64,000 nt of DNA from an uncultured Holophagae bacterium (GTDB lineage Bacteria > Acidobacteriota > Thermoanaerobaculia > Thermoanaerobaculales > Sulfomarinibacteraceae): positions 848,983-912,982 of the forward strand of contig CAVQXZ010000001.1 of the NCBI GenBank assembly GCA_963718055.1, written 5' to 3'. Shown here piece by piece: positions 1 through 60,561 of the stretch. The notes below the pieces were generated by a model that saw nothing but the letters and a program-made list of their open reading frames with translations, was not told the origin of the DNA and ran no database searches. Made by a program: the position numbers and the translations under genes. Numbering within the stretch: the stretch's first letter is position 1; each line of letters begins with the position of its first letter.

Positions 1-1040
1 GGGAACATGGTGTCGTAGAGCGTGATCGGCAGGGTGTTGGTCAGGGTGAAGGTCGAGTTGGCCGGGGTCGTGAAGTCGGCGTCGAACTTCCACAGGTTGA
101 GCGCGTCCTGGGGCGCGCCGTAGTTGGCACCCTGGTCCTGCGAGCCGAGGAAGTACTCGGGGCTGCCGGCCGGCGGCAGGGCGAAGCCGTCGATGTCGGC
201 GGGCAGCAGGCCGTCGCCGACGACGTACTGGGGCGAGCGGGGCACGAAGAAGGAGATGACGGTCGGCGTCGGGTTGCCGGAGACCATGTCCGCGCGGCTG
301 AGCGCGTAGACGCCGACCCCGGTGTAGCTCGCGCCGCCGGCGAACTCGCGGGTGGCGATGTAGTAGGCGTCGCTCCAGATGCCGTACTTCGGGTAGTCGG
401 GGAAGTTGGTGCCGGTCGAGATCGCCCAGCGGTAGTAGCTGCCCGTCGGGTCGCTCGTCGTCGACACGGCCACGCAGTTGTAGTAGGTCGGGCCGTTGGC
501 CGTGAACTGGGTCAGCATCCAGCGGTCGGCGAGCTGGTCGTAGAGCACGATCGGGTCGCCCTGGTTCTCGTTCTGGCAGGGGCCGCCGAAGCCGGACCAC
601 AGGGTGTTGTTGTTGGCTGGCCCGTAGGCGTTGCTGCCGTCCTTGTTGAAGACCTGGAAGCGGACGTTCGCCATCGCCACGTAGTGGTTGGGCCCGACGT
701 CGCCGACCGGGTCCGGCGGCGTGTAGCCGCCCTGGTTCGGCTGGCCGTCGAAGCTGATGAGCGGCGCCGGGATCATCTCCGGTCCGCCGGTCCAGCCCTG
801 CACGATCGGGTCGACGTCCTGCGGGCCGAGCTCGGCCGGAGGCAGCTCCGGATCATCCGAGCGCCGAGTCATGGGGTCGAGGACCGGCGGGATGTCGCGC
901 AGCGGCGGCGAGATATCGAATTTCACCACCGGCTGCAGCCCGCGGTAGATCCCGGAGACCTGGTCCTGGGCCTGGACAATCGGGGTCGCACCAGCGACCA
1001 GCAGCACTGCCACGAGCACGACACGCATCGAGGTCCTCAT
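1..1040 (-). CDS. Secreted propeller-like protein, N-terminal part only (3' end lies beyond the window edge); tandem paralog of 1455..4322
   Basis: The minus-strand frame is open from base 1 to the ATG at 1038-1040, with AGGAG 8 nt upstream. The translation MRTSMRVVLVAVLLVAGATPIVQAQDQVSGIYRGLQPVVKFDISPPLRDIPP... is collinear with the N-terminus of the 1455..4322 product (shared GDPIVLYDQxADRWMLTQF, NFPDYPKYG, GAPQDALxLWKFDADF). It is missing from the ORF track because it runs off the edge. Confidence 0.8.
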   Translation of the reverse strand, partial: MRTSMRVVLVAVLLVAGATPIVQAQDQVSGIYRGLQPVVKFDISPPLRDIPPVLDPMTRRSDDPELPPAELGPQDVDPIVQGWTGGPEMIPAPLISFDGQPNQGGYTPPDPVGDVGPNHYVAMANVRFQVFNKDGSNAYGPANNNTLWSGFGGPCQNENQGDPIVLYDQLADRWMLTQFTANGPTYYNCVAVSTTSDPTGSYYRWAISTGTNFPDYPKYGIWSDAYYIATREFAGGASYTGVGVYALSRADMVSGNPTPTVISFFVPRSPQYVVGDGLLPADIDGFALPPAGSPEYFLGSQDQGANYGAPQDALNLWKFDADFTTPANSTFTLTNTLPITLYDTMF

Positions 1041-1253
1041 CACTCTGTCTCCTTCGTGGTCGATTGGCCGGCACACGGTGTTGAATGGGGGCCGGGTCGC
1101 ACAGTGACACGGCCCACCGTGAAAGCCGGAACAATCCAAGGTCGAATCGTGGGACTTCTGCGCCGCGGTGTCAATAGGATCCGGGGGATAGGGGCTGAGG
1201 GCCAGGGGTTAGGCCCGCGCCCCCTTCCGCTTCCGCGCCCGCTTCCGGATGCT

Positions 1254-1454: not shown

Positions 1455-4322
1455 CTACGGCACGGTCGCAGACCAAGCCGAGGTGTCGCCCGACTCGAAG
1501 CCGTCCTCGAAGGGCAAACCAGCGACCGTCTCGCAGTCGGTGGGGACCATGACGTTGGTGATCTCGATGTCGTCCACCCACCAACCCTGGTAGGTCACGC
1601 TGCCGTCGGTCGACAGCCGCCAGCGCAGCGTGACCTCCTGGTTGGCCCAGGCCGCAAGCGAGGCCGTGTACTGGGCCCACGTCGGCGTGCCGCTGCCGGT
1701 GAAGTAGGACCCGGTCGGCAGACCGCAGGCGTCGCTGGTGTTGGTCGAGTTGCCGGGGTAGTTCACCGGCACCTTTGCCCACGTGGAGCCGCCGTCGGTG
1801 GAGATCTCCACCACCCCCTTGTCATAGCTGTTCTCGAGCTGGTACTTCGACCAGAAGCTCAGGTCCGGGCTGCCGCCGAGCAGCATCTGGGGAGTGGTGA
1901 TGCCGGCGCAGACGTTGTTGCCATAGGTGCCGGTCAAGTAGACGTGGGGACCGAAGTTGCCCCCTGTCGTCGCGATCGACCATGGCGTCTCCGGGGTCAG
2001 AGTCGCGTCGCCAGTGTCGCCGGCATCGTCGATCCAGGTGCCGATGCTGTAGGGTCCGGTCGGCACCCCGGAGCGTTCCTCGAGGTTCTGCTCCTCGGCG
2101 CTGTTGACGGAGTCGACCGCCCGCACCACGTAGTAGTGCCGGACCTGTGACTGCAGCTCATCCGAGTCGACGAACGAGGTTCCGGTGACGCCGCTCGCCA
2201 CGCGGTTGTCGGTGCTTGGGGTGAAGCCCTGGGTCGTGGACCGGTACACGTTGTAGGTGATGCTCCCCGCGCAGCGGCTGATCGCCGGGCTCCAGCCGAG
2301 CTCAAGGGTGCACTGGTTGAACGCGGGGTTGGCCACCGTCTCGATCCCCGCGAACAGCGGCGGCAGGGTGCAGGCGCCGGTGGCAACCGCGCTGGCCTCG
2401 TTGGACGGGTCGGAGAGGCAGGCGCCGCCGTCGGACGAGCGGACCACGTAGAAGTACTCGGTGCCGCCGCTGACGTCATAGTCGGGGTAGGTGTAGCCTG
2501 CCCCGCCTCCCGAGCCCGGGCTCGAGTCCGGCACCGTGGCGATCAGGTCGTAGGGGCCACCGGAGGTGTACGAGCGGAACACCAGGTACTCGGTGATCTC
2601 AGGCGTCGCGGAGTCGTCCCAGCCGACCTCGATCAGGTTGTCGCCGCCGACCCCTGCGGAGACGATCGGGGGGACGATGACCAGCGCGCAGCCACAGCTG
2701 TCGAACTTGAAGGCGCCGATCCGCAGCCGCCAGCCGACGCTGCTCGTGGTGGGGATGTACTGGTTGACGTACCAGAAGGTGCAGTCGTCGATCGGGTCGA
2801 CGTTCATCGAGGTGTAGTCGCCCCAGCGCTGGCTGCCGGTCTGGGAGCCGGTGCCGTTGATGAACGAGGCCTCTCCCTGGGGCATTGTTCCGAGGGAGTC
2901 GCCCGACAGCCGGCCGGTGTACCACGAGCTCGGGAAGGTGCTGGTGCCGTTCGATGCGCTGTAGCCGAGCGCCATGTTGCCGGAGCTGTCCTGGGCGATG
3001 CTCCCCATCCAGCGGTGGATGCCGTCGGAGACGCCAGGCGCGTAGCTTCCCTCCTGGTAGATGAAAGGTGCGGAGCTCGGGCTGCGGATCTCCCACCAGC
3101 GGATGCCGGACATGGTGGCCGACGCCTCGATCGACTGGTTGGTGACCAGCGCCTCGTGGCTGCCGAAGTTGCGGTAGGCGAGGCGGTGCATGGGCCGCTG
3201 GCGGTAGCCGAGATGATCGATCAGGTTGGTGGTTCCCGGCTGCGGCACACAGGAACGGCCAGAGCAGAATGCCGGGATCGTGTCGTAGGCCGCGATCGGG
3301 ATGGTGTTGGACAAAATGAAGGTCGAGTTGGCCGGGGTCACGAAGTCGGCGTCGAACTTCCACAGCGTCAGCGCATCCTGGGGTGCGCCGTAGCTGGCGC
3401 CGTTGTCCATCGCGCCGAGGAAGAAGTTGGGGCTGCCGGCCGGCGGGAGGTCGTTGCCGTCCAGGTCCGAGGGCAGCAGGCCATCGCCGACGTTGAAGGC
3501 GCCGCCGGAGCTGGCCGGGGTGGCCAGGAAGGAGATGACCTGCAGGGCGGGGTTGCCCGAGATGAGATCAGCACGCTTGAGCGCGTAGGCGCCGACGCCC
3601 ACGAAGGTCGAGCCGCCGGCGAACTCGCGGGTGCTGATGTAGTAGGCGTCGGGCCAGACGCCGTACTTCGGGTAGTCGGGGAAGTTTGGTCCGGTCGAGA
3701 CCGCCCAGCGGTACCAGGCGCCGGTCGGGTCGCCGGTCTGGGACACGGCCACGCAGTTGAAGTAGGTCGGGCCGAACGACGTGAACTGAGTCAGCATCCA
3801 GCGGTCGGCGATCTGGTCGTAGAGCACGATCGGGTCGCCGGCGTTATCGTTCTGGCAGTCGCCGCCGAAGCCGGTCCACAGGGTGTTGTTGGCGGCCGGG
3901 CCGTACAGGCTGGTGCCGGCCTTATCGTAGATTTGGAAGTAGAGGTTGCTCATCGCCACGTAGTGGTTGGGCCCGATATCGCCGACCGGATCCGGCGGCG
4001 ACACGCCGGCGATGTTGCTCGGCCCATCGAAGCTGATGAGCGGCGCCGGGATCATCTCCGGTCCGCCAGCCCAGTCCTGTACGAGCGGGTCAACGTCTTG
4101 CGGCCCGAGCTCGCCGGGCGGTCCCTCCGGGTCGACCATCGCCTCGCCGCCCGCCGTGACGGGCAGCGGCGGGATGTCACGCAGCGGTGGCGAGATATCG
4201 AACTTCACCACCGGCTGCAGCCCGCGGTAGAGCGCGGAGATCTGGTCGCCGGCTTCGAGGGTTGGGCTGATGGCGAGCACGCACACGGCCGCCAGGGTCA
4301 TCAGGGCTCTGGAATCGCGCAT
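1455..4322 (-). CDS. Large secreted multidomain protein (propeller-like N-terminal half, two FN3-like modules, jelly-roll-like module) ending in the [14 protein letters not shown] tag
   Basis: ORF 1455..4430; the best start is the ATG at 4322, preceded by GGAGGAG. The signal peptide is MRDSRALMTLAAVCVLAISPTLEAG. Motifs include GDPIVLYDQIADRWMLTQF, WGDYTSMNVDP, FN3-like YLVFRSYTSGGPY / YNVYRSTTQGFTP, and VVEISTDGGSTWAKV...GWWVDDIEITNV. The C-terminus is [24 protein letters not shown]. Confidence 0.85.
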   Translation of the reverse strand: MRDSRALMTLAAVCVLAISPTLEAGDQISALYRGLQPVVKFDISPPLRDIPPLPVTAGGEAMVDPEGPPGELGPQDVDPLVQDWAGGPEMIPAPLISFDGPSNIAGVSPPDPVGDIGPNHYVAMSNLYFQIYDKAGTSLYGPAANNTLWTGFGGDCQNDNAGDPIVLYDQIADRWMLTQFTSFGPTYFNCVAVSQTGDPTGAWYRWAVSTGPNFPDYPKYGVWPDAYYISTREFAGGSTFVGVGAYALKRADLISGNPALQVISFLATPASSGGAFNVGDGLLPSDLDGNDLPPAGSPNFFLGAMDNGASYGAPQDALTLWKFDADFVTPANSTFILSNTIPIAAYDTIPAFCSGRSCVPQPGTTNLIDHLGYRQRPMHRLAYRNFGSHEALVTNQSIEASATMSGIRWWEIRSPSSAPFIYQEGSYAPGVSDGIHRWMGSIAQDSSGNMALGYSASNGTSTFPSSWYTGRLSGDSLGTMPQGEASFINGTGSQTGSQRWGDYTSMNVDPIDDCTFWYVNQYIPTTSSVGWRLRIGAFKFDSCGCALVIVPPIVSAGVGGDNLIEVGWDDSATPEITEYLVFRSYTSGGPYDLIATVPDSSPGSGGGAGYTYPDYDVSGGTEYFYVVRSSDGGACLSDPSNEASAVATGACTLPPLFAGIETVANPAFNQCTLELGWSPAISRCAGSITYNVYRSTTQGFTPSTDNRVASGVTGTSFVDSDELQSQVRHYYVVRAVDSVNSAEEQNLEERSGVPTGPYSIGTWIDDAGDTGDATLTPETPWSIATTGGNFGPHVYLTGTYGNNVCAGITTPQMLLGGSPDLSFWSKYQLENSYDKGVVEISTDGGSTWAKVPVNYPGNSTNTSDACGLPTGSYFTGSGTPTWAQYTASLAAWANQEVTLRWRLSTDGSVTYQGWWVDDIEITNVMVPTDCETVAGLPFEDGFESGDTSAWSATVP

Positions 4323-21214: not shown

Positions 21215-22405
21215 ATGAGTCGATGGCCGGTGCGATGGTGGGCGACGGCCGGAGCGGCAGCGGTCGCGTTCGCGGCGGTGGCCGGTGCGCAGGACATGAC
21301 CGCCGGAGTCGTGACCGACCCGCCAGCGCCGGTGGCCGGCGGCGTCGCGACCTTCACCGCCACCTACGAGAACCTGGGGCCGGGGGAAGCGGCTGACGTC
21401 AACGTGAGTGTGCTGGTCCCCATCCAGCCGCAAACCTGGCCGCCAGGGTCGGACGGCTTCGTCGCGATGATCGATTCGACCCTTGGCACCGACATCAACG
21501 GCAACCAGGTGTTCTGGAGCTTCGATACGGACTCGCTGTGCGACTACTACAAGCTGGAGCTCCAGGAGCCGAACACGACCGGCGACCAGTTCATGATCCC
21601 GAACCCTTTTCCGGCCGGGCACAGTGGATCCTTCACCTGGGAGATGCCGATCATCCCGATGGAGGGCATCGACGTCGGGCGGGTCGTCATCACCGAGCCG
21701 GAGAGCCTGCGCAACAGCTTCTCGGTCAACGGCGCGCAGTGGGTGGAGTACCCGTGGCTGCACGGCCATGCCGGCCTCTACAACCTGGTTGCGGCCGCCG
21801 GCCTGTGCGACGAGGGTGGCGCAGACTGCGCCGATCTCCAGGCCTGCATCGGCGACCGTTTGTGGGCGATCGAGCCCCTTGTAGCCGAGCTCGAGATCGG
21901 CCAGGGCAACGACGGGGAACCGACCCTTGGGTGCGGCACCCAGCTCGTCGACTTCACAGCCGGGAGGATCGCGATCCTGCGCCGAGGCGTCTGCAACTTC
22001 ACCGTCAAGTTCGAAAACGCGCAGAACGCCGGGGCTCTCGGGGTCATCCTGGTCAATGACGGCCGCTGCGGCGATGTGCCGGACGCGGATCCGGACGAGT
22101 GCACGATCACCATGGGCGGCGACCCTGGCACCGGCTATCTGCTCGATGTCCCGTCGGTGCTCATGAGCCGCCGCCAGGGCGAGGAGCTGATCTCGGCGCT
22201 GCAGGGGGGGCAACGGGTCCGCGCGGCGATCGGCGCCATTCCGGGCGACAGCGTCGACCTGTTCACGCGGGTCACCTCCGACGTGGACCCGGACCTCACC
22301 AACGACTTCGTGGTGACCAGGGTGTTGCTCGGGGACGTGGGGCTGCTGTTCGCCGATGGCTTCGAGTCCGGCGACACCTCGGTGTGGTCGGCGACCGTGC
22401 CGTAG
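21215..22405 (+). CDS. Secreted PA (protease-associated) domain protein with the C-terminal FESGDTSxWSATVP tag
   Basis: Signal peptide MSRWPVRWWATAGAAAVAFAAVAGAQD. PA-like segment FTAGRIAILRRGVCNFTVKFENAQNAGALGVILVND. Ends [24 protein letters not shown]. Confidence 0.8.
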   Translation: MSRWPVRWWATAGAAAVAFAAVAGAQDMTAGVVTDPPAPVAGGVATFTATYENLGPGEAADVNVSVLVPIQPQTWPPGSDGFVAMIDSTLGTDINGNQVFWSFDTDSLCDYYKLELQEPNTTGDQFMIPNPFPAGHSGSFTWEMPIIPMEGIDVGRVVITEPESLRNSFSVNGAQWVEYPWLHGHAGLYNLVAAAGLCDEGGADCADLQACIGDRLWAIEPLVAELEIGQGNDGEPTLGCGTQLVDFTAGRIAILRRGVCNFTVKFENAQNAGALGVILVNDGRCGDVPDADPDECTITMGGDPGTGYLLDVPSVLMSRRQGEELISALQGGQRVRAAIGAIPGDSVDLFTRVTSDVDPDLTNDFVVTRVLLGDVGLLFADGFESGDTSVWSATVP

Positions 22406-22484
22406 GAGCGCGAGGGGCATGGGCCCCTCGACGAGCGACTGGAGGCGGACTGCAGTGGGATTCGCTCTCGCTGGCACGGTCCGC

Positions 22485-23042
22485 ATGCTGCCGGCGGTGT
22501 ACGATGGAGGCGTCGTGGATTTCGAGCGAGTTCTTCGGCTGCTCAGCGGTTTCTTACAAGGGGCTTCCGTGGAGTGGGGAGTCATCGGAGGGCTCGCGAT
22601 GGCGGTTTACGGGCCGGGCAGGACGACGCTCGACGTCGACATCGTGGTCGACGGTGAGCATCAGGATGGCGTCATCGCCTTTCTCGAGTCGCAAGGCTAC
22701 ATGACGCTGCACCGGTCGACCGGCTACTCGAACCACCTCCACTCGGACCCCGACCTGGGCCGGGTGGACGTCGTGTACCTGAGGGGAGACACCAGCCGCA
22801 GTGTGCTGTCGGCGGCCACTGTAAGGCCGGGGCCCGGAGGCGCGCCGATACCGGTACCCCGCGCGGAGCACCTCGCGGCGATGAAGGCCTTCGCCATCAA
22901 CAATGACCCCCGGCGTGCAGCCCGCGAGCTTGCCGACATCCGCGACCTGCTGGCTGCGCCAGGCGTCGATCGCGATGAGGTCCGCGAGTACCTGATCCGC
23001 TATGGTCTGGAGGGTCTCCTTGACCGACTCGAAGACGCGTGA
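22485..23042 (+). CDS. Minimal nucleotidyltransferase-fold protein
   Basis: Part of ORF 22356..23042; the ATG at 22485 was chosen but the start is uncertain. GVIGGLAMAVYGPGRTTLDVDIVV fits the G-x-G...D-x-D NTase motif. Confidence 0.55.
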   Translation: MLPAVYDGGVVDFERVLRLLSGFLQGASVEWGVIGGLAMAVYGPGRTTLDVDIVVDGEHQDGVIAFLESQGYMTLHRSTGYSNHLHSDPDLGRVDVVYLRGDTSRSVLSAATVRPGPGGAPIPVPRAEHLAAMKAFAINNDPRRAARELADIRDLLAAPGVDRDEVREYLIRYGLEGLLDRLEDA

Positions 23043-23232
23043 CCGCGGGGCCCTCGACCTCGAGCGCGATCTCCCGACGACGGTCGAGGATGTTCGTGTT
23101 CTCTGGGAGTTGAGGGGAGCGCACATCGAGAACGCCCTGGTTCACGCGAACCGCCTGCTGGCGCCAGGCTGGACGCTGGCCCGGGCTGCTGCCCGGCCTC
23201 TCTTCGAAGGCTACCGACCGTTCACGCTGTAG
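23002..23232 (+). CDS. Small hypothetical protein overlapping the end of the NTase gene (possible partner)
   Basis: 76-aa ORF with non-degenerate composition (DLERDLPTTVEDVRVLWELRGAHIENALVHANRLL). The start is uncertain and I recognise no family. Confidence 0.3.
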   Translation: MVWRVSLTDSKTRDRGALDLERDLPTTVEDVRVLWELRGAHIENALVHANRLLAPGWTLARAAARPLFEGYRPFTL

Positions 23233-23777
23233 CAGTGCGCGCCGACATCGTTTCGTCTCCGTCGGCGGCGCGAGCTCCGCCTGCCTGGCATTGTCCCTTG
23301 GGGAGTCCTTCCGAGTCTTGAAAACGGGACGTCCCGCTGCGGGAGCCGACGATCACCGACAGCGGCAAGATCATCGTCGACACCAACGACAAGTACACGT
23401 TCAGGCAGCAGCCCTGGTGACCACCGCCGATTCTCTCGTTCGCCGTCAGTCCGGCCACCGCGCTCCACGATCCGGATGGCGCGACGATCGAGCCGGGTGA
23501 GGCCGAGGACGATCCGATCGAGGTCCTGATCCCGGATCCGCTCGTCGATGAAGGTGCCGACGACGGAAGAAGACCCCTCATGGCATGTCGCACGCGCTCG
23601 CACGGGGAGTCCGGCGCCGGGCGGATGGTGAGCGCTTCCGGGTCGACCTCGGGAAGCCATGCCCACTTGACACGCGCCTTCCAGTGGGTGGCACCCTTTT
23701 TTGTGAGGCCTGACACGTGCTACGCCGTCATCCTCGGACACGATTTGACCGGACGTGGCCCTCTGCGTACGCTCGGA

Positions 23778-25466
23778 ATGGCAACTCCGAGGGAGGACGC
23801 CGTGCGTGGATCCAGCAACTCCCAGAGCGATGACCGCCGTGTCGGGCTCTGCGCCCGTGCCCTCGTCGTGCTCGGGCTCGCCGCTTTCTGCGACCCGGGG
23901 GTCGCCTTCGCCACCTGCAGCGGCGCGGGCAGGGCGTGGACCTGCACGGCCGGCAGCACGCGGGCGCAGGTGCAGGCAGTGATCGACGCTGCGGAGGACG
24001 AGGCGGTCGTCACCTTCGCCGCGGGCAGCTACGACTGGACCGGTGGCGTGATCAACCTGGGAGCGATCGACGGGGTGACCCTGAGGTGCGAGACGGTCGG
24101 GACCTGCCTCGTCGCCCACGACGGAAACCTCGTGTACAAGGACTTCGTCCCGGCGGCGTCGGACCGACTGCACCGGATCACCGGGTTCTCCTTCACCGGG
24201 ACGTCGGGCACCGGCACGATCTGGTTCCTCGGTCAGAACGACCTGACCCGGATTCGGATCGACCACAACACGTTCACGGAGACGAGCGGGAGCGGATGCA
24301 AGGTGGCCGTCTTCTTCGGCGCCATCGATCCCGGCTTCGACGGCAACATGTTCGGAGTCGTGGACAACAACACGTTCACGTCCACCAGCTCGTGGAACCA
24401 CATGGGCGTCAAGAACCTGTCGGGTCAGGACGCGGCCTGGACCCTCGGCCTGCCGGGCAGCGCGCGCAACCTGTTCATCGAGGACAACGTTTTCACGTAC
24501 TCGGCCCTGAACTACAACGGCGGTTGCGGCTGCATGGATGCCTGGAACGGTGGAGCCACGGTCTTTCGGTTCAACACGACGACGAACTGCCGCGTCGTGT
24601 CCCACGGCGTCTGCCACGGAGGCCCGCCCAACTTCGAGGTCTACCACAACGACATCACGACGCCCGATGGCTACCGGAACATCCATCATCAGGGGTCGGG
24701 CGAGATGTTCGTGTTCCACAACGATCTCAACAACGGCAACGAGATCGCCCTGCTGCACTACAGATCCTGCCCCCCCGAGCAGACCGGATGCTCCATGCCG
24801 CGCTGCGACGGGAGCCAGCCGATCGACGGCAACCGGTTGCCGACCTCCACCTACTACGGCTATCCCTGCTATCGCCAGCCCGGCCGGGACGCGAGCGGCA
24901 CGCTGCGGCCGATCTTCGCCTGGGACAACGTCCACGACGGCGGCAAGTCCGACATCGACTTCCAGGACGCCTGGGGTTGCACGAACCCGTCGCCGCACGA
25001 CCACGTTCAGGCCGACCGCGACTACTACAACGCCGTCTCCGCGCAAGCGCAGATCTCGCCGACCAGCCCCTTCGACGGCACGACCGGGATGGGTTTCGGC
25101 AGCCTGGCGAACCGTCCGCCGACCTGCACGACGACCTCCGAGGCCGCGGACGCCGGCCACGGCGGAGTGGGGTACTGGGCGACCGATGTCGGCAACTGGA
25201 ACGGCGGAGCGGGGGCCGAGCAGGGCAGGCTCTATCTGTGCAGCTCCGAGGACACCTGGACCGAGTACTACGAGCCCTATCGCTACCCGCACCCGCTGCG
25301 CGGAGTGCTGCTGATCGACGGTTTCGAGTCCGGCGACACCTCGGCGTGGAGCGCAACGGTACCGTGGGAACAGTCCGAAAGCACCAGGAGGCTGCAGCCT
25401 GCTCGGGTTTGGAGGGGAGCCACGGCACCCCTTAGCGGCAGTGACAGATGGGAGGAACGGTCATGA
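23778..25466 (+). CDS. Secreted right-handed beta-helix (pectate-lyase-fold-like) protein carrying the tag, followed by a 33-codon read-through extension
   Basis: ATG 23778 in ORF 23580..25466. Signal-like RRVGLCARALVVLGLAAFCDPGVAFA. Beta-helix-like turns (ITGFSFTGTSGTGTIWF, IRIDHNTFTE, VVDNNTFTS, LFIEDNVFTY). The tag [19 protein letters not shown] is followed by TGG (25365-25367) where all paralogous tags have a stop. Confidence 0.75.
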   Translation: MATPREDAVRGSSNSQSDDRRVGLCARALVVLGLAAFCDPGVAFATCSGAGRAWTCTAGSTRAQVQAVIDAAEDEAVVTFAAGSYDWTGGVINLGAIDGVTLRCETVGTCLVAHDGNLVYKDFVPAASDRLHRITGFSFTGTSGTGTIWFLGQNDLTRIRIDHNTFTETSGSGCKVAVFFGAIDPGFDGNMFGVVDNNTFTSTSSWNHMGVKNLSGQDAAWTLGLPGSARNLFIEDNVFTYSALNYNGGCGCMDAWNGGATVFRFNTTTNCRVVSHGVCHGGPPNFEVYHNDITTPDGYRNIHHQGSGEMFVFHNDLNNGNEIALLHYRSCPPEQTGCSMPRCDGSQPIDGNRLPTSTYYGYPCYRQPGRDASGTLRPIFAWDNVHDGGKSDIDFQDAWGCTNPSPHDHVQADRDYYNAVSAQAQISPTSPFDGTTGMGFGSLANRPPTCTTTSEAADAGHGGVGYWATDVGNWNGGAGAEQGRLYLCSSEDTWTEYYEPYRYPHPLRGVLLIDGFESGDTSAWSATVPWEQSESTRRLQPARVWRGATAPLSGSDRWEERS

Positions 25467-26437
25467 CCAGACATCGCAGCCTTGTCGTCACCTGCCTCGC
25501 GTTCTCAGCCAGCCTCCTCGCGGCTACGAGCGGCAACGCACAGCTCGTCCTCGTCGACCACACCGGCACCTTTATCCACGAAATCCCCACAACCGCCATT
25601 ACCCAGGCCCAGGCCGACCTGCACGTCGCCTACGCTCACACCAGCCATGGCAGCCAGTTGATCACTGGCCTCGATGCCCTGATGAGCTACCCGCCCTTTG
25701 CCGACGCCTTCCAGTGGAGCGACGATGGCTCGGTGGGGCTCGACCTCGACGACTTCGGCATCCCCTGCAACATCCCGGATCTCAGCCAGGGCGACTACAT
25801 CGACCCATACGGTGTGACACCGTGGGTCACCTGCACCCGCACCTTCCTTGACGACCCGGCCAACACCCACGTCAACGTGATCATGTGGTCGTGGTGCAGC
25901 ATCAACGGCCACGACGCTCAGCGCTACGTCTCCAACATGGACCTCCTAGTCACCGAGTACCCGGACGTCCACTTCGTCTACATGACCGGGCACGCCGAGG
26001 GCCAGGGCGAGGATATGACCCCGGGCAGCGTCCACTACAACAACCAGCTCATCCGCCAGCACTGCGCCGCCAACGGACGCATCCTGTTCGACTTCGGGGA
26101 CATCGAGGCGTACGACCCCGACGGGGCGTACTACTGGGACCAGCACATGTACGACAACCTCGACTACGACGGTGGCAACTGGGCCCAGCAGTGGATCGCC
26201 GCCAACCCCGAGTCCGAGCTGGCCGAGCTGGTGCTCGGGGACGGCGCCGGCTACCCGGGCGTCTCGGGCTGTGCCCACTCCGACAGCCCGACTGAGGCCA
26301 ACCTCAACTGCGTGCTCAAGGGCCAGGCGTCTTGGTGGCTGTTTGCCCGCCTGGCCGGCTGGGATGGAGGTGGAGCGACCTTTGCTGATGGCTTCGAGTC
26401 CGGCGACACCTCGGCGTGGTCGGCGACGGTGCCGTAG
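25463..26437 (+). CDS. Secreted protein of unknown fold with the C-terminal tag
   Basis: ATG 25463 (GGAGG 8 nt upstream; an alternative ATG is at 25448). Signal peptide MTRHRSLVVTCLAFSASLLAATSGNAQ. Ends [24 protein letters not shown]. Confidence 0.75.
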   Translation: MTRHRSLVVTCLAFSASLLAATSGNAQLVLVDHTGTFIHEIPTTAITQAQADLHVAYAHTSHGSQLITGLDALMSYPPFADAFQWSDDGSVGLDLDDFGIPCNIPDLSQGDYIDPYGVTPWVTCTRTFLDDPANTHVNVIMWSWCSINGHDAQRYVSNMDLLVTEYPDVHFVYMTGHAEGQGEDMTPGSVHYNNQLIRQHCAANGRILFDFGDIEAYDPDGAYYWDQHMYDNLDYDGGNWAQQWIAANPESELAELVLGDGAGYPGVSGCAHSDSPTEANLNCVLKGQASWWLFARLAGWDGGGATFADGFESGDTSAWSATVP

Positions 26438-26662
26438 GCGAGGGGCGCGGCGGCCCCGTGATTCATGCCGCGCGGTGTGCGCGGCAAGGCACGATTCCTC
26501 GATCTGCCCCCGGCACGGGGGGCCATTCTGTGGCTGGCACCACACGCGCGCTGATTGAGTATTGCGTGTCGGCGGCGGGCGGCATAATGGCATAATGGTG
26601 CCGGGCACGCCATTCCGCCTTTGTTTGTTGCGTCGTCACCGGGGGGCGCCGGCCGGCTCGAA

Positions 26663-27544
26663 TCACTCCATGGCGGCGACCAGCGGCGCCAGGCCCGAGC
26701 CCTCGGGGAGGAGGATGACGGCGCCCGAGCTCTTGACGATCCGGTCGGTCTCGAGCACCTCGAACATCGTCGCCTCGATCTCCGGGTCGCGGCCGATCGT
26801 CTCGAGCGCGGCGCCGACGATCTTCGGGCGCATCGCCGCGGCGCGGCCGAACTCGACCGCCGCCTTGCGCTGCGCCGAGCTGGTGATGATGTCGACCTTG
26901 TTGGCGCCGTCCTGGCGGATCGCCGAGGTCACCTGGCGCAGCCGGTTGACCACCTTCTGCTCGATCTGCTCGATCATGCCGCGGTCGCGGAAGTGGACCT
27001 TGCGGATGTACACCGAGCCGAGCTTGTAGCCCCACTGGTGGGACAGCGGCGTCACCTCCTCGCGGACCGTGTGGCTCATCTCGTGGCGGTCGGCGAGCAT
27101 GTTGTCGAGCTGCATGTTGGACAGGCAGCGCACGGTGGCGTTCGACACGTTGGCGCGCAGCGAGCCGCGCGGGTCGACGTTCTTGAACAGGAAGGCGACC
27201 GGGTCCGAGATGTACATCTCGTACCAGATGCCGATGCCCATCGGCGCCCCTTCCTCGGAGTTGACCGCCTGCGAGCGCAGGTACTCCTGGTCGAGGCGGA
27301 GGTCGAGGGTGTAGCAGCGGCCGAGCCAGTGGACGATGAACGCCGGCACGCCGAGCCGGGTGGGCAGGAAGTACAGCCCCGGCTCGTCGATGATGCCGAG
27401 GACCTTGCCGAACAGCATGTAGACCTTGGCCTGGCGCTCGCCGACGACGACGAACCAGCCGAACAGCCGGATCAGGGCGAGCAGGATGGGCACGGCGATG
27501 AACAGACCCAGGAAGGTGACCGCCGCGGTGATGAGGAAGGTCAT
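26663..27544 (-). CDS. SPFH/band-7 domain membrane protein
   Basis: 293 aa. TM anchor TFLITAAVTFLGLFIAVPILLALI, then QAKVYMLFGKVLGIIDEPGLYFLP ... GYKLGSVYIRKVHFRD. The ATG overlaps the upstream SPFH gene stop (ATGA). Confidence 0.85.
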   Translation of the reverse strand: MTFLITAAVTFLGLFIAVPILLALIRLFGWFVVVGERQAKVYMLFGKVLGIIDEPGLYFLPTRLGVPAFIVHWLGRCYTLDLRLDQEYLRSQAVNSEEGAPMGIGIWYEMYISDPVAFLFKNVDPRGSLRANVSNATVRCLSNMQLDNMLADRHEMSHTVREEVTPLSHQWGYKLGSVYIRKVHFRDRGMIEQIEQKVVNRLRQVTSAIRQDGANKVDIITSSAQRKAAVEFGRAAAMRPKIVGAALETIGRDPEIEATMFEVLETDRIVKSSGAVILLPEGSGLAPLVAAME

Positions 27545-28534
27545 GACGCCACCTCCCGGAAGACCCGGCTGGCCTTCTCATAGAGGCCGAGCCGGACGTA
27601 GCGGCGGTAGGCCCGGAGCGCTTCGGACCCCGCCGCCTTGAGCTGGGCGAGCTCGCGGGCGAGGGCCTCGAGGGGCTCCACCTCTGCCTGCGCCTTCAGT
27701 GTCTCGATCTCCACCGCGCGTCGCGACTGGACCAGGGTCTGGTCGGCGGTGGCGCGGGCCAGGGAGATCTCGGACGAGACGTGGTTGTGGGCGGTGTTGA
27801 TGGCGGCGAGCGCGGCGTCGACGTCGGTGCGGTGGGTCGATGCCGGTGATCAGCGAGGCGTCGAGGGCGATGCCGTAGCGCGCCTCGGAGACCTTGCACT
27901 CGGCGAGCATGTGTTCGTTGAGGTCGCGCAGGTTCTTGCGCAGGTCGTTGATCGACACCCCGGCGACGGTGGAGGCGTCGACCTCCTCGCTGTCGCCGTG
28001 GACTCCCGGGCCGGTCGGCGCCTCGAAGGTGGCGATGCGCTCCCTGAGCACCGAGATGAAGTAGCCCATGACGTGGGCCAGCGGGTTCTTGACGCCGAAC
28101 AGGTAGGCGTAGAGGTTGCGCTCCGCGACCTGGAAGCGGATCTGGCCGGTGAGCCCGGTGTTGAGCTGATCCTTGGTGACCGCCTCCAGCACCGTGCCGC
28201 CGTCGTTGGCGGTGGCGCTCTCGGGGTCGTAGGCCATGCTGACGGTCTCGGTCGCCACCGAGACCTTGTAGATCTTCTCCCAGGGCATCTTGAAGTAGGG
28301 TCCGCCGGGCGGGATCACCCGGAGCAGCGGGAAGGCGTAGCGCGCACGCTCGTCGGCGTCGAAGCCGGCGCCGAGCTCGCCGTCGGTCACCGTCGCCGTG
28401 CCCAGACGCTGCGCTCTTCCGAACACCGTCTTGATAGCGCGCTCGTTCTGGTCGACGGTGTAGATCCCACCGACTACGTAGCGCACCACGAACCAGGCGA
28501 GAAACCCCGCCATCATCCCGGCCAGCAACGACAT
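27541..28534 (-). CDS. SPFH/band-7 domain protein; frame broken near 27826-27832
   Basis: ATG 28534 (AAGGAGG upstream). MSLLAGMMAGFLAWFVVRYVVGGIYTVDQNERAIKTVFGR... runs to ...ASLITGIDPP in one frame. The convincing coiled-coil tail DVDAALAAINTAHNHVSSEISLARATADQTLVQSRRAVEIETLKAQAEVEPLEALARELAQLKAAG...REVAS-stop lies in the next frame. The span length is 3n+1. Confidence 0.8.
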
Positions 28535-28787
28535 GCCGTCCTCCTTTCGGGTTGGGTCCCGGAGTCGTCTGGAGTCGGATCTTACCGGAGGATCGGCGAA
28601 TGTGGTGTGAAGAGATTGCGGCTCGACTCCAGGCGGTCGATCTGAGGGCGCAACCGGCGCCCCGTCGCGACGAACGCGGAGGGCGACGACCCTCGGGGAC
28701 CACCTCGCGAATAGTGCCAGGCGCGCCAGGATCGCGGCAGGGCGCGCCGAGCAGCTGGAGCCTGCCGACCCCCGTGGTGGTTTCCTG

Positions 28788-28816
28788 ATGACATCTGGGT
28801 CACCCAGGAGTATGTT
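28788..28816 (+). promoter_or_regulatory. Putative promoter of the first LVIVD gene
   Basis: ATGACA (28788-28793), N17, TATGTT (28811-28816), followed by GAG. The same layout and downstream ..TTGAG.. box occur at 30482 and 31246. Confidence 0.4.
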
Positions 28817-28854
28817 GAGAACAAGCGAACAAGCCTTCACAGAGGGGGGACACC

Positions 28855-29883
28855 ATGAAGAGCCCGCGGCCCGCGTGTCGGTTGGTGGCGCTTCTCGGGA
28901 TCGGTGCGGGTGTGCTCGCAACGCCGGTCGGTGCGCAGGGGTGCCCGGAGCTGGTCGGCTCCTACGGCACGCCGGGGGTCGCCTACGTCGTCGCGGTAGC
29001 CGGCTCCTACGCTTATGTGGTGGGCTACGCCGCCGGCCTGCGGGTGATCGACGTCTCCAACCCCGCGGCGCCGTTCGAGGTCGGCTCCTACGACACGCCG
29101 GGTTTCGCCTACGGCGTCGCCGTTGCCGGCTCCTACGCTTATGTGGCGGACGAGGACGCCGGCCTGCGGGTGATCGACGTCTCCAACCCCGCGGCGCCGT
29201 TCGAGGTCGGCTCCTACGACACGCCGGGGTGGGCCCTGGGAGTCGCCGTTGCCGGCTCCTACGCTCATGTGGCGGGCTACCACGCCGGCCTCCGGGTCGT
29301 GGACGTCTCCAACCCCGCGGCGCCGTTCGAGGTCGGCTTCTGCGACACGCCGGGGTACGCCTTCAGCGTCGCCGTTGACGGCTCCTACGCCTACGTGGCG
29401 GACGATTACGTCGGCCTGCGCGTGATCGATGTCTCCAACCCCGCGGCGCCGTTCGAGGTCGGCTCCTACGACACGCCGGGGAACGCCTATGGCGTCGCCG
29501 TTGACGGCTCCTACGCCTGCGTGGCGGACGGGTACTACGGCCTGCGGGTGGTCGACGTCTCCAACCCCGCGGCGCCGTTCGAGGTCGGCTCCTCCGACAC
29601 GCCGGGGTACGCCTGGGGCGTCGCCGTTGCCGGCTCCTACGCCTACGTGGCGGAAGACCTCGCCGGCCTGCGGGTGATCGACGTCTCCGACCCCGCGGCG
29701 CCGTTCGAGGTCGGCTCCTACGACACGCCGGGGAACGCCTACGGCGTCGCCGTTGACGGCTCCTACGCGTACGTGGCGGATGGGACCGTCGGCCTGGAAG
29801 TCCTGACCAGCTGCGAGGGCCTCCTCTTCCACGACGACTTCGAGTCCGGCGACACCTCGGCGTGGAGCGCGACGGTGCCGTAG
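28855..29883 (+). CDS. LVIVD-repeat beta-propeller protein (seven 42-aa blades) with the C-terminal tag
   Basis: Signal peptide [29 protein letters not shown]. The repeated unit is [39 protein letters not shown]. Ends [24 protein letters not shown]. Confidence 0.9.
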
Positions 29884-29920
29884 GCTGTCGGACACCCCAT
29901 TCGTAAGCGTGGAGGTAACC

Positions 29921-30325
29921 ATGGCTTCTGGCAGACGGCGCTTGCCCTCCTCATCGGAAGAACCCGTTCTATGGCTGCTGTACTGGACACCGCGAGTGCT
30001 CTGCATCCTGTATGCCGCGTTCATCAGCATCTTCGCAGCGGACGTCTTCGGTGGGGGCGTAGGCTTCTGGCAGACGGCGCTTGCCCTCCTCATCCATCTC
30101 ATCCCGACCTTCCTCATGGTCGCGGTGCTTGTCGTCTCCTGGCGCCGTGAGTGGATCGGAGGAGTGGTGTACATCGCGTTGGCGGCGCTGTGGGTCATCT
30201 GGGCGTGGAACAAGCCTTTCTTCGGATGGGTGCCGCTCCTCCTGATAGCGGGGCCCCTGGTGGTGACCGGCGTGCTCTTCCTGCTCAACTGGCGTTACCG
30301 CAAGGAGCTTCGCCCCACCGCCTGA
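29921..30325 (+). CDS. Small four-TM membrane protein of unknown function
   Basis: ATG 29921 with GGAGG at 29911-29915. Hydrophobic segments are VLCILYAAFISIFAADVF, ALALLIHLIPTFLMVAVLVV, VVYIALAALWVIWAW and LLLIAGPLVVTGVLFLL. Confidence 0.6.
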   Translation: MASGRRRLPSSSEEPVLWLLYWTPRVLCILYAAFISIFAADVFGGGVGFWQTALALLIHLIPTFLMVAVLVVSWRREWIGGVVYIALAALWVIWAWNKPFFGWVPLLLIAGPLVVTGVLFLLNWRYRKELRPTA

Positions 30326-30481
30326 GCTCGAGCGCAAGCACCGAGGGGCGACGAACCGCGCCGACGAGGCTCTCAGGCGATCGCGGACCCACGACCCCAA
30401 CGTGAACTGACCGCCAGGCGCGGCAGGCTGCGCTGAGCCGCGCGCACAATCAAATCCGCACATTGTCCGCATGTTTTCCTG

Positions 30482-30510
30482 TTGACTTTCGAGTTATCGC
30501 GACCCACATT
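30482..30510 (+). promoter_or_regulatory. Putative promoter of the second (decayed) LVIVD gene
   Basis: TTGACT (30482-30487), N17, CACATT (30505-30510), followed by GAGTGCA. Confidence 0.4.
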
Positions 30511-30548
30511 GAGTGCAAGCTAACAAGCCTTCAGACGAGGGGGACGCC

Positions 30549-31260
30549 ATGAAGAGCCCGCGGCCCGCGTGTCGGTTGGTGGCGCTCCTGGGGATTGGTG
30601 TAGGTGTACTCGCGACGCCAGCGCTCGCGCAGGACTGCCCAGCGTTCGTTGGATCTGTCGAAATTGAAACGGGGGTGGTTTACCCCAGAGGGGCCGTTGC
30701 GGTATCCGACGGCTATGCATACGTTGCAGCCAACTCGGCGGGACTGCGAGTGATCGACGTGAGGATGCCGTCGACACCGATAGAGGTCGGCTCTCTCGAT
30801 ACCCCGGGTGATGCCATGAATCTGGCGGTCTCCGGAAGCCACGTCTTCGTCGCGGATGGCTCCAGCTTCAGCACGCGTGTGATCGACGTGAGCATACCGT
30901 CTGCGCCGGTTGAGGTTGGGGTCATCGACATGGCGTACAGCCCGAGGGAGTCGACGAGTTGCGTGAGCGACTACGCGTACGGTCGCGGAAGGCTTCCTGG
31001 CCTGGGATTGCATGTCATCGACGTGAGCTCGCCCTCGGCCCCGGTGGAGGTTGGCTTGATCGACGCGCCAGGGTCTCGCCAGGGGTGTCGCGGTGTCCAA
31101 CGGTTACGCCTATGTCGTGCGAGTGACTGGGGCAAAAGATTAGCAGTCTCCACCGCTGATTGACGTCAGCACGCCCTCGGCTCCGGTCGAGATCGGCTTC
31201 GCCGATATTGCGCCGAGCCGCGATGGCCCCCTCCCCATCTCCCTGTTGACAATCCCTTAG
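30549..31260 (+). pseudogene. Decayed LVIVD-repeat paralog (frame shifts, internal stop, no C-terminal tag)
   Basis: The N-terminus [36 protein letters not shown] is nearly identical to the 28855 gene, including its upstream leader. The repeats degrade after about 31070: GLARGVAVSNGYAYVV is in another frame and ends at TAG 31140, and a further [17 protein letters not shown] blade lies in yet another frame up to TAG 31258-31260. Confidence 0.7.
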
Positions 31261-31274
31261 CCGGGACACAGATT
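31246..31274 (+). promoter_or_regulatory. Putative promoter of the third LVIVD gene, embedded in the tail of the pseudogene
   Basis: TTGACA (31246-31251), N17, CAGATT (31269-31274), followed by GAGAGCA. Confidence 0.45.
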
Positions 31275-31310
31275 GAGAGCACGGTAGCAATCGGCAGAAA
31301 GGGGAAACCC

Positions 31311-32356
31311 GTGAGCAGCCACATGCCCGTGACCCACGTGGTGGCGCTCGTCGTGATCGGAGTGTCTGTACTTGCGGTGCCGGCGCTTGCAGACTGCCCA
31401 GAGTTCGTGGGGTGGGTTGACACTCCGGGCAGCGCCCGCGGCGTTGCCGTTTCGGGCAGCCGCGCCTACGTCGCGGACGGGGAGGAGGGTCTTCGCGTGA
31501 TCGACATTGGCAACCCCTCGGCCCCGGTAGAGGTCGGCTTCGTCGACACACCGGGCGCCGAGGACGTCGCGGTATCGGGCGGCTACGCGTACGTCGCGGG
31601 GGGGGGGGCCTTCGGGTGATCGACGTGAGCGTGCCGTCTGCTCCGGTGGAGGTGGGATTCCTCGGCACTTCGGGGTCCGCCGTGGACGTTGCGGTGTCGG
31701 GCAACTACGCATACCTCGCCGACTGGACGCCAGGCTTTCGGGTGATCGACGTCAGCACCCCCTCAGCCCCGGTGGAGGTGGGATTCCTCGACAATCCCCC
31801 TTGGGCCGGGGGCGTCGCGGTGTCGGGCAGCTACGCGTACGTCACGTACGGCTGGGTTTCCAATTACTTTTGCGTGATCGACGTCAGCATGCCGTCGGCC
31901 CCGGTGGAGGTGGCTGTCCTCGAAACTCCCGGTTGGCCCCAGGCCGTCGCGGTCGAGGGCGGCTACGCGTACGTCGTGGCGTGGGAGGAAGTCCCTTGCG
32001 AGTCAGGTCTCTCTGTGATCGACGTGAGCAATCCCTCGGCCCCGGTGCAAGTAGGGTTTGCCGATACTCCGGGTGTCCCCCCCCTCGCCGTCGCGGTGTC
32101 GGGCAGCTACGCGTACGTCGCGAACGGGGAGGATGGTTTCCGCGTGATCGACGTGAGCAACCCCTCGGCCCCTGTGCAAGTAGGGGTTGCCGATACTCCG
32201 GGTGTCGCCCTCGACGTCGCGGTATCGGGCGGCTACGCGTACCTCGCCGACTCGTCCGCCGGTCTCGCCGTCTTCTTGGAGTGCCCGCTCGGGTGGGTGT
32301 TCGGGGACGGTTTCGAGTCCGGCGACACCTCGGCGTGGAGCGCAACGGTGCCGTAG
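31311..32356 (+). CDS. LVIVD-repeat beta-propeller protein with the C-terminal tag; interrupted by an 11-G homopolymer (31598-31608)
   Basis: ORFs 31311..31619 and 31616..32356 are two halves of one repeat protein. The first ends ...[17 protein letters not shown] inside the G-run; one more G would read ...[17 protein letters not shown]. Signal peptide [20 protein letters not shown]. Ends [24 protein letters not shown]. Confidence 0.8.
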
Positions 32357-43008: not shown

Positions 43009-43019
43009 CCTTGGCTCCG

Positions 43020-45135
<2,116 letters not shown>

Positions 45136-45138
45136 CCG

Positions 45139-45437
45139 CTAGCTCCGCATCTCGCTGGCCTCGTCGAGGGCCACCGTGTCCTTGAGGCGGACGAGGGCGA
45201 TGATCAGCCCGAGGCCGATGGCGGCCTCGGCGGCGGCGATCGTGATCACGAAGATCGCGAGGATCTGTCCGGCCAGGTCGCCGAGCCGGTAGGAGAAGGC
45301 GACCAGGTTGAGGTTGACGGCGTTGAAGATGAGCTCGAGCGACATCAGCACGGTGATGAAGTTGCGCCGCATCATCACGCCGATGACGCCGAGCGAGAAC
45401 AGGATGAGCGACAGCAGCACGTAGTGAGTGGCGGTGA

Positions 45438-59379: not shown

Positions 59380-60561
59380 TCACGGGACCGCCGTGCTCCA
59401 GGCTGAGGTGTCGCCGGACTCGAAACCGTCGCTGAACAGAGGCAGCAGCTCGAGGGTGGCGCGCCGCGGCGGCAGCACCACCGGCCGGATGCCGTCATCC
59501 GCCGTGATCAGGAAGACGTCGACGCCGGGGAGGCCGGTCTCGGTCAGAGCCACCTCGTAGCTGCCGTCGCCCACATCGACGATGTCGCCGATGGTCGTGA
59601 CCTGGTCGCTCTCGGGCGCGTGCTCCACGTTGAAGGCCTGGACGCCGTGGCCGAGCAGCACGCCCTGCCAGTCCTTCAGCTCCACCCGCAGCGACCACTC
59701 ATTCCCTGGGTCGTCGATATCGGTGAAGGAGACCAGCGACGCGATGGCGTCGGGACGGCCCAGCAAGTCGAGGCGGGCGTCGTCGAACAGCGCCTGGAGC
59801 TGGAACACCGGATCGGGGGCCGAAGCTTGCTGGTAGGCGACGTTGAAGGCCATGAAGTAGTCGCCGTCGGCACAGCCGCCAGCATTGCAGACCGCGTCGT
59901 CAGTGTCTCCGAAGCGGGAGATCAGAATGTACCCGATGTGGGCGGATTTCTCGAAGCTGGGAGGCGGCGATCCACAGCCGGTCGGATTGCCAGGGTCGCA
60001 CGAGCAGCGGCCGTCGCCGCCCATGGAACGGGCTGCCTCCATGGCGGCCATCGTCCTCGCGGGAAGGTCCCCCGGCGTGTTGACGAAGGCGTCCTCGGCC
60101 AGGGTGATGACCGGGCTGCCCGTGAGCACATTTCCCTGGATCGCGTAGTGCACGCTGCCGATGCTCCCCACCACGCCCCCGGCGTACGCCCCGCAGCTCG
60201 CGCCGGTGTGGGTGGCCGACGTTCCGACCGTCGTCTCGGCGACGCCGTGCTGATGGAACTGGGAGGAGGGGAGGGCAATGAGCTGGGCGACGATCTCCTG
60301 CGCGGTCTGCCCGGCAAGGAAGCCGTTCCACATGATGAGGCGTCGCTGTCCCGTGCTGTCGACGTAGGACTGGGCAGCCCCGCCGCCCTTGCCGACGACG
60401 ATGGCCGGCGTCAACGCTCTGAGATCGTAAGAGGTCAGGCAGGTCGCCGAGGCGACCACGACCTCCTGGGTCTCCGCGTCGGCGGCCACGATCGACCAAG
60501 TCGCGCCAGCCGGTTGAGCAGCGAGCGCCGCGAGCGCCACGAACAGAGTCACCTGACGCAT
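59380..60561 (-). CDS. Secreted DUF1028-type Ntn-hydrolase-fold protein with an extra C-terminal domain and the tag
   Basis: ATG 60561 in ORF 59380..60675. Signal peptide MRQVTLFVALAALAAQPAGA, then TWSIVAAD (N-terminal Thr nucleophile pattern), GGGAAQSYV, and YAIQGNVLTG. Ends [25 protein letters not shown]. Confidence 0.75.
   Translation of the reverse strand: MRQVTLFVALAALAAQPAGATWSIVAADAETQEVVVASATCLTSYDLRALTPAIVVGKGGGAAQSYVDSTGQRRLIMWNGFLAGQTAQEIVAQLIALPSSQFHQHGVAETTVGTSATHTGASCGAYAGGVVGSIGSVHYAIQGNVLTGSPVITLAEDAFVNTPGDLPARTMAAMEAARSMGGDGRCSCDPGNPTGCGSPPPSFEKSAHIGYILISRFGDTDDAVCNAGGCADGDYFMAFNVAYQQASAPDPVFQLQALFDDARLDLLGRPDAIASLVSFTDIDDPGNEWSLRVELKDWQGVLLGHGVQAFNVEHAPESDQVTTIGDIVDVGDGSYEVALTETGLPGVDVFLITADDGIRPVVLPPRRATLELLPLFSDGFESGDTSAWSTAVP

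Follow-up and report, generated by a model that had tools for sequence, protein, structure and literature searches.

What is the function of a short peptide that recurs at the C-termini of proteins with quite different folds? The question is raised by a 64,000-nucleotide stretch of contig CAVQXZ010000001.1 from an uncultured Holophagae bacterium (the window), in which a preliminary description had reported such a tail, hereafter the tag, on eight genes. A six-frame motif search, translations and a codon listing place eight copies of the peptide at the coordinates first given for them, and Pfam and NCBIfam assignments of the passengers confirm that proteins of different fold share it. Within the window the tag is approximately 18–20 residues long, has [ILV] at its first position, and lies at or adjoining the C-terminus of all eight gene products; a degenerate DNA pattern for D-[GD]-F-E-S-G-D-T-S-x-W-S has eight matches there, compared with none in 100 dinucleotide-preserving shuffles. 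The reading that we favour, at a probability of roughly 0.55, is that the tail is an autonomous peptide module acting in trans as a targeting or docking tag on exported proteins. The tagged genes, together with a paralogue that runs off the edge of the window, are as follows.

1455..4322, minus strand: 955 amino acids; Sec signal peptide, large N-terminal region, InhA-like MAM / choice-of-anchor J jelly roll; tag 1458..1517, stop TAG
21215..22405, plus strand: 396 amino acids; signal peptide, PA domain; tag 22343..22402, stop TAG (22403-22405)
23778..25466, plus strand: no family match, beta-helix-like; tag 25308..25364, followed by TGG
25463..26437, plus strand: 324 amino acids, no family match; tag 26375..26434, stop TAG (26435-26437)
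28855..29883, plus strand: 342 amino acids; LVIVD beta-propeller (choice-of-anchor B); tag 29821..29880, stop TAG (29881-29883)
31311..32356, plus strand: LVIVD, with a frameshift in the 11-G run at 31598-31608; tag 32294..32353, stop TAG
59380..60561, minus strand: 393 amino acids; DUF1028 (Ntn-hydrolase-like) with a C-terminal extension; tag 59383..59442, stop TGA
60611..62491, minus strand: 626 amino acids; LVIVD propeller of 13 repeats; tag 60614..60673, stop TAG
3..1043, minus strand: N-terminal part of a paralogue of the gene at 1455..4322; its C-terminus lies beyond the window edge

A conserved peptide on exported proteins

The preliminary description had ascribed an N-terminal signal peptide to every bearer of the tag. 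When the translations are read by eye this is true of all eight, each of which begins with a Sec-type signal peptide comprising a basic n-region, a hydrophobic core and an AxA-type cleavage site; RTX repeats are absent from all eight. Three of the window passengers match NCBIfam 'choice-of-anchor' models (B and J), and the PA domain of the product of 21215..22405 matches sortase-dependent M36 families. The motif had also been said always to stand directly before the stop codon, which holds for seven of the eight window copies but not for the gene at 23778.., where TGG comes next. In other proteins the motif is found in tandem (P0153, P0158), in linkers (P0131, P0139, P0151) and directly after a signal peptide (L065).

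The tag is also widespread well beyond the window. When 1.84 billion cluster representatives were searched with HMMER without filters, 6,920 clusters (at 50% identity) matched the profile at E≤1e-3, and in about half of the best 150 of these 6,920 the tag is at the extreme C-terminus. A profile of the tail recovered 1,648 short proteins or fragments, and 113 of the best 120 end exactly at ...WSATVP; within the Acidobacteriota lineage a terminal position overwhelmingly predominates among the best profile matches but is not invariable, given the tandem, linker and N-terminal copies found elsewhere, and the ATVP ending is lineage-specific. Some Chloroflexi-like proteins seem to end in the motif only because the contig stops there. 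In one genome per GTDB species, a search pattern tied to the stop codon identified at least 115 loci with at least 146 terminal tags. A crude hydropathy test finds an N-terminal hydrophobic segment in approximately 70 of the 97 complete tagged open reading frames (ORFs) of those loci, and the ORFs that remain look mostly like over-extended start calls.

Among the loci listed, nearly all belong to metagenome-assembled genomes (MAGs) labelled Thermoanaerobaculia, 'Holophagae', Multivoradales, Sulfomarinibacteraceae or Acidobacteriota. Other carriers are rare in the list, with one MAG each of Deltaproteobacteria, Polyangiaceae, Gemmatimonadota, Bryobacterales and Gammaproteobacteria, and a cultured gammaproteobacterium, Marinicella litoralis KMM 3900, whose tagged protein (WP_099018929.1) is annotated merely as hypothetical. 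Judging by these loci, the tag is used in large numbers by Thermoanaerobaculia-type Acidobacteriota, and more sparsely by some Myxococcota, Gemmatimonadota and Gammaproteobacteria.

Does selection act on the peptide or on the DNA? Synonymous differences between the window copies had been taken to show that it acts on the peptide. Such variation is real, but it is modest: the central 21 nucleotides are nearly invariant because preferred GC-rich codons are used there, and the window alone is therefore weak evidence for a peptide-level signal. The proof comes mainly from other genomes, in which the tag peptide is kept with different codons over a range of 41–68% GC; in the Marinicella copy (41% GC), most synonymous sites differ from those of the window copies. 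Comparison with these genomes establishes the tag as a protein-level signal. It also upholds the view that the tag is not a copied DNA repeat, and we rejected a DNA repeat or mobile cassette, since the DNA 3' of the tags is not conserved and other genomes use different codons.

To avoid circularity, 120 orthologues of the 324-residue passenger encoded at 25463..26437 were picked on similarity of the passenger alone. The tail is present in 79 of them and is more conserved than the passengers, which are only 60–75% identical. Of the 79 tails, all keep both Phe residues and the Trp, 78 the Glu, 77 the hydrophobic residue at the start, 75 the first Gly, and 74 each the Asp before that Gly and the second Gly. 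The part that follows the Trp is variable, with 0–10 residues (mode 5) and endings such as SATVP, SASSM, SQ, D and Q, and in DUF1028 orthologues from Wenzhouxiangellaceae and similar Gammaproteobacteria the tail consists only of ...F-F-x-N-G-F-E plus 1–3 residues. The core of the tag can be written as hydrophobic-F-x-D-G-F-E-x-G-D-x-x-x-W, to which the lineage of the window adds S-A-T-V-P before the end. These comparisons indicate that the tail, although an orphan in the sense described below, is under strong purifying selection.

Kinship with the first strand of a jelly roll

The cluster representatives fall into two classes, one terminal, in which the chain stops exactly five residues past the Trp, and one internal. 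Members of the internal class are large Actinobacteria-like or Chloroflexi-like proteins in which the motif recurs every ~190–290 residues, the last copy being ~170–190 residues from the C-terminus. Here the motif is evidently the start of a repeated domain (~190 residues), and 66 of 67 repeat units fall in one homologous family. Pfam gives sub-threshold matches for the internal class that place the motif on positions 1–4 of CBM_4_9, Polysacc_lyase and Laminin_G_3, and a profile built from 16 diverse units matches Cip1 (3zyp) from residue 3 with an E value of 1.5e-10, as well as CBM22 modules and laminin G domains. The preliminary description had remarked that G-F-E-S-G-x-x-x-x-W resembles the first strand of LamG or jelly-roll domains. 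This is borne out both by the match to 3zyp and by a hidden Markov model (HMM) of the full domain, which places every orphan tail, that is, every tail that lacks the rest of the domain, at positions 1–16 only.

In Cip1 this segment comprises strand 1 (Ile2-Asp4) and the loop Phe6-Trp15, and the ligands of the structural calcium are a main-chain oxygen (Asp5), the Glu7 side chain, two residues of a 'grip' loop and, from the last strand, Asp206 (PMC3764139). Orphan tails conserve the same residues that are invariant (F, E, G, W) or nearly so (D) in the domain family. It can be seen that the tag and the jelly rolls of Cip1, CBM22, CBM4_9 and LamG (3zyp, 4xup) have the pattern F-x-D-x-F-E-x-G-x(4-5)-W in common, the invariant F, E, G and W being shared. 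The tag differs from them in that the remaining ~170–200 residues, the 'grip' loop and the Asp ligand near the C-terminus among them, are missing, and in that the jelly-roll element heads its domain whereas the tag sits at the C-terminus of unrelated passengers. A search for the rest of the domain 3' of the tags found nothing domain-like in any frame (the stop lies five residues past the Trp), and full jelly-roll domains are essentially absent from tag-rich loci. We conclude from these alignments that the tag represents strand 1 with the calcium loop of a concanavalin-A-like jelly roll, the rest of that domain being absent, and that the conserved unit is the strand with the Glu-bearing loop, the A-T-V-P ending being a habit of one lineage.

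The preliminary description had itself noted that its proposal would fail if homologues carried the motif internally, as the first strand of a full domain, and the window genes were truncations. The motif does occur elsewhere as an internal first strand. The window genes, on the other hand, cannot be read as simple truncations, since the same orphan element is retained under selection in thousands of independent proteins.

The motif is present on phage contigs as well, where it usually heads a jelly roll at the extreme N-terminus (27 of 34 matches); seven small proteins with signal peptides have it as a terminal orphan. Many phage proteins on the IMG/VR contigs L117-L150 have I-F-S-D-G-F-E-S-G-D-F-S-x-W within 5–8 residues of the start codon, at the head of a Cip1/LamG-like jelly roll, and in others from the same contigs the motif follows a conserved N-terminal segment of ~90 residues (...REYLAQFFT). 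The phage proteins that begin in these two ways are probably tail-fibre or receptor-binding proteins.

Structure prediction was applied to the 324-residue protein and to its tail. With an alignment of 120 sequences, AlphaFold2 models the passenger at a predicted local distance difference test score (pLDDT) above 90, and the model has weak Foldseek similarity to SGNH/GDSL esterases/hydrolases. The tail (residues 301-324) is predicted at pLDDT 51–60, with no secondary structure and not packed on the passenger, and the isolated 36-residue tail is predicted at pLDDT 62 with no hairpin. These models provide weak evidence in keeping with a peptide that needs a partner.

What stands in place of the tag when an orthologue lacks it? 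In the SGNH-like family to which the 324-residue passenger belongs, the tag alternates with a PEP-CTERM-like transmembrane tail with a basic end (P0323), with dockerin-like tails (P0354, with PF00404; P0360) and with longer extensions. Approximately a quarter of the orthologues have instead a recurrent short Arg-rich tail (for example P0275, P0294, P0297, P0302 and P0306), which occurs in Thermoanaerobaculales, follows the pattern ...LAGW-x-P-x(3-6)-[VI]-R-R-x-[ST]-G-R-R-V-x-P(-x-P), and is basic and lacks a membrane helix. This tail has no match in the precomputed Pfam column and was not found among the ORFs of the window or of the loci. In the DUF1028 family 56 of 120 orthologues have the full tag, many members from Planctomycetota have PF00404 dockerins, one group has a MAM-like domain, and the gammaproteobacterial members have the minimal tail. 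The interchange with dockerins and membrane anchors is the strongest available evidence that the tag may be a targeting or anchoring module.

Irregularities in the tagged genes

Two of the tagged genes in the window have defects. The TGG at 25365-25367 that follows the tag of the gene at 23778.. is one transition away from TAG; the ORF extends for 33 codons to 25466, and this read-through overlaps the start of the next gene (25463..26437). A JGI contig from a separate assembly, with 99.4% identity, shows the same gene call (L116, 788-2386). An unrelated fragment, P0036, likewise reads ...TVPW.... The second defect is a frameshift that splits the tagged LVIVD gene at 31311..32356 within the 11-G run at 31598-31608, the longest homopolymer of the window; removal of one G from the run would bring back the reading frame. 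This frameshift could be an assembly error, or it could be slipped-strand phase variation of a surface protein. A frame plot of GC content at third codon positions (GC3) shows that the coding frame shifts inside housekeeping genes too (nuo subunits and an SPFH protein, at 41390-50428 and 27578-28921), which suggests indel errors in the assembly, and both defects should therefore be read with caution.

The stop codons were tallied. TAG ends six of the seven tagged genes in the window that have a stop, compared with 12 of the 48 other called genes, and the stops after tags in the at least 115 other loci are TGA (70), TAG (59) and TAA (17). TAG is enriched after tags, and is not obligatory. A cause for this was looked for in the stop tallies and in the downstream DNA, at the window and at the at least 115 loci, and none was found. 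Stop-codon recoding was rejected, since all three stops are used over these loci and the downstream DNA is not conserved.

Two further observations concern the LVIVD genes. The tagged proteins encoded at 28855-29883, 31311-32356 and 60611-62491 have a Cys 1–3 residues past the predicted cleavage site (AQGC, ALADC, FADDC), and all three have a second Cys 1–5 residues ahead of the conserved Phe of the tag. The pairing suggests a disulfide that would close the propeller, with the tag beginning immediately behind it. The LVIVD gene at 30513-31163 encodes a signal peptide near-identical to that of 28855..29883; the tag is absent from it in every frame and its C-terminal part is out of frame, and this gene is probably truncated or frameshifted.

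Comparison with known signals and the weighing of alternatives

The preliminary description could match the tail to no named sorting signal, and the model libraries agree with it. No model of Pfam-A or NCBIfam release 20 covers the tail when whole proteins are searched (at E≤1 for NCBIfam), and 33-residue tails scanned alone against Pfam and NCBIfam at E≤10 gave no match, although HMMER filters can lose very weak matches. Against PDB sequences the tail profile produced nothing beyond chance matches of 8–10 residues, and full-text literature searches turned up no relevant paper.

One comparison is with the PEP-CTERM/exosortase, LPXTG/sortase, GlyGly-CTERM/rhombosortase, MYXO-CTERM and IPTL-CTERM classes, which resemble the tag in being C-terminal, in occurring on many unrelated Sec-exported proteins per genome and in being taxonomically restricted. 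They also share passenger families with it, namely 'choice-of-anchor' B and J and M36-type PA domains, and in one orthologue a PEP-CTERM-like tail stands in for the tag. These classes are however built from a signature motif, a transmembrane helix and a basic cluster, and the tag has none of this and no NCBIfam match: the window tails contain no hydrophobic run and no Arg or Lys. No sortase, exosortase or rhombosortase was seen in the window or in the 8-kb tagged loci. A Thermoanaerobaculia ORF (L091, 2791-7491) contains an internal IPTL-CTERM-like signal (EIPTLGGVGLAFLALALLAAGALLLRRRG), downstream of which, in the same frame, lie a second segment resembling a signal peptide and a giant beta-helix protein. 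This ORF could be two fused genes or could have a missed stop, and to judge by it other sorting signals coexist with the tag in these genomes.

C-terminal domains (type A/B) of the type IX secretion system (T9SS) are likewise tags without a membrane helix on Sec-exported cargo, readable in the periplasm. T9SS domains belong to Bacteroidota and relatives and are beta-sandwiches of 70–100 residues (TIGR04183, PF18962), whereas the tag measures 7–19 residues in its various forms (18–20 in the window, where it has no match to these models and is modelled as unstructured) and occurs mainly in Acidobacteriota. Dockerins (PF00404) are, like the tag, short, acidic, calcium-associated, non-catalytic, found mostly at the C-terminus of diverse secreted enzymes and sometimes duplicated. 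Compared by sequence alone they differ from it, since they are built from a duplicated EF-hand-like segment with no sequence similarity to the tag, which is about one third as long; PF00404 has no match in the window proteins, while the orthologues with true dockerins do match. To our knowledge no cohesin-like partner is known for the tag. A type I secretion signal does not fit either, given the Sec-type N-termini of all eight proteins and their lack of RTX repeats, nor does the beta-signal of outer-membrane proteins, the tails ending in Pro and the passengers being soluble folds. C-terminal export tags as such are familiar; the architecture of this one appears to be unlike that of every described class with which it could be compared.

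How, then, might the tag act? We infer trans binding, the mode of binding and the cellular destination from comparison with these systems. The passenger would cross the inner membrane via Sec while the flexible acidic tail stays unfolded relative to it, and a cognate receptor would then bind the tail, so that the cargo is targeted to, or held at, the cell envelope or an extracellular assembly. Such a role would parallel that of the dockerins or membrane-anchor sorting signals found in orthologues from other phyla. The most likely binding mode would be addition of a beta-strand, with calcium, into a jelly-roll-like pocket, because the residues preserved in the tail are precisely the structural and calcium-binding ones of the parent element in Cip1, CBM22 and LamG. 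The existence of tandem, linker and post-signal-peptide copies leads us to favour a binding module over a processing signal that has to be terminal.

Several results weigh against a docking or targeting module. Its near-exclusive terminal position would suit a classical sorting or secretion signal equally well, the variable and minimal tails mean that the recognised element may be smaller than assumed, and AlphaFold2 gives the isolated tail no confident fold. The search for a partner was also negative. Near the tags, all-against-all clustering of 604 ORFs from the window and the at least 115 loci (8 kb each) detected neither a receptor nor a sortase-like enzyme, and no part of a translocon. 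The recurrent neighbours, which are Ser/Thr kinases with tetratricopeptide repeats (TPR; 10 loci), ATP-binding cassette (ABC) ATPases, sulfatase-like proteins and sensor proteins, were judged to have no connection with an extracellular tag. Elsewhere in the window there are housekeeping genes and no partner (a nuo operon, purA, two PilT-type ATPases, SOD, a MacB-type ABC exporter, SPFH proteins, an amidase, tRNAs and tmRNA), in line with the earlier statement that no obvious dedicated processing enzyme can be identified there. Finally, an HMM of the jelly-roll domain without its first 16 residues (the 'headless' HMM) found no strand-less jelly roll in ~1 Mb of tag-rich DNA, nor beside viral orphan tags, its sole match being an ordinary LamG domain within a tagged protein (L072); this negative is weak, because a sample of ~1 Mb would probably miss a single-copy receptor.

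With regard to the kinases, members with long TPR regions occur no more than 8 kb from a tag in 10 of the at least 115 loci (including L010, L052, L062, L069, L086, L096, L109 and L115), and this proximity probably reflects merely the abundance of the family in these genomes.

The main rival to a docking or targeting module is a classical C-terminal sorting or secretion signal that a periplasmic machine, either an outer-membrane translocon or a transpeptidase (cf. T9SS/PorU), reads and then removes or modifies, the likeness to a jelly roll being a matter of ancestry only. Over 95% of orphan copies lie at the very end of the protein, Trp+5 being the preferred length, and the tag occurs in high copy number per genome over a coherent taxonomic range, as PEP-CTERM or T9SS cargo does, on cargo families of the 'choice-of-anchor' types and in alternation with a PEP-CTERM-like tail among orthologues. 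We nevertheless regard this explanation as doubtful. Neither a membrane helix nor a basic tail is present, the tag is far shorter than any T9SS domain, it also occurs in tandem, in linkers and once near an N-terminus, and no candidate enzyme was found beside any of ~150 tagged genes; a recognition site unrelated to the jelly roll, moreover, need not retain its structural and calcium residues.

A more specific form of docking can be envisaged, in which a natural split domain is completed in trans. A 'headless' jelly-roll receptor in the envelope would receive the tail as a detachable first strand and calcium loop, and calcium would clamp the Glu/Asp of the tag to the C-terminal Asp of the receptor. 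This would amount to a cohesin-dockerin-like display of hundreds of unrelated exoproteins per genome, and would extend to the minimal F-x-N-G-F-E tails. Donor-strand complementation, in which a terminal strand completes the incomplete beta-sandwich of another protein, as in chaperone-usher pili and in the C-terminal strand insertion of Bacteroidota type V pili, is a precedent for such strand exchange; it differs in that homologous pilins polymerise there, whereas here hundreds of unrelated cargoes would donate the strand. We consider this version unlikely.

The tag might alternatively need no receptor and act through calcium, its acidic D-x-x-E-x-x-D bridging to lipopolysaccharide or exopolysaccharide, or pairing one tail with another, and so keeping exoenzymes in the matrix. 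The net charge of the tail (about -3 to -4), the presence of the calcium ligands of the parent fold, the alternation, within one orthologue family, with an Arg-rich tail of opposite charge, the avidity that tandem copies would add and the lack of a receptor in the searched loci are all compatible with this. It is improbable all the same, since the aromatic F, F and W vary no more than the acidic residues do, which points to a shaped hydrophobic pocket rather than to ionic bridging, and a short peptide offers too few ligands for tight calcium binding. It is very unlikely that the tail is a non-functional remnant, left as a first strand by repeated truncation of C-terminal jelly rolls or by miscalled gene ends: although the motif heads a full domain elsewhere and certain Chloroflexi-like terminal copies are contig-end truncations, the same boundary recurs in thousands of independent proteins, the tail is conserved above its passengers and kept under different codon usage, no rest of the domain is present in any downstream frame, and full domains are essentially absent from tag-rich loci.

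According to the record titles of the loci, Thermoanaerobaculia and related Acidobacteriota are widespread and mostly uncultured. With eight tagged genes in 64 kb and thousands of clusters in all, much of what they secrete or display at the surface appears to carry an address that annotation pipelines miss. An HMM of the tag would label thousands of 'hypothetical' proteins as exported cargo and would enable a search for the partner by phylogenetic profiling, and the cultured carrier Marinicella litoralis KMM 3900 offers an experimental handle. Were the tag a sorting signal, it would point to an unknown pathway of envelope targeting; if strand complementation is true, it would represent a new design of docking system and a ready-made pair of short peptide and receptor for protein engineering.

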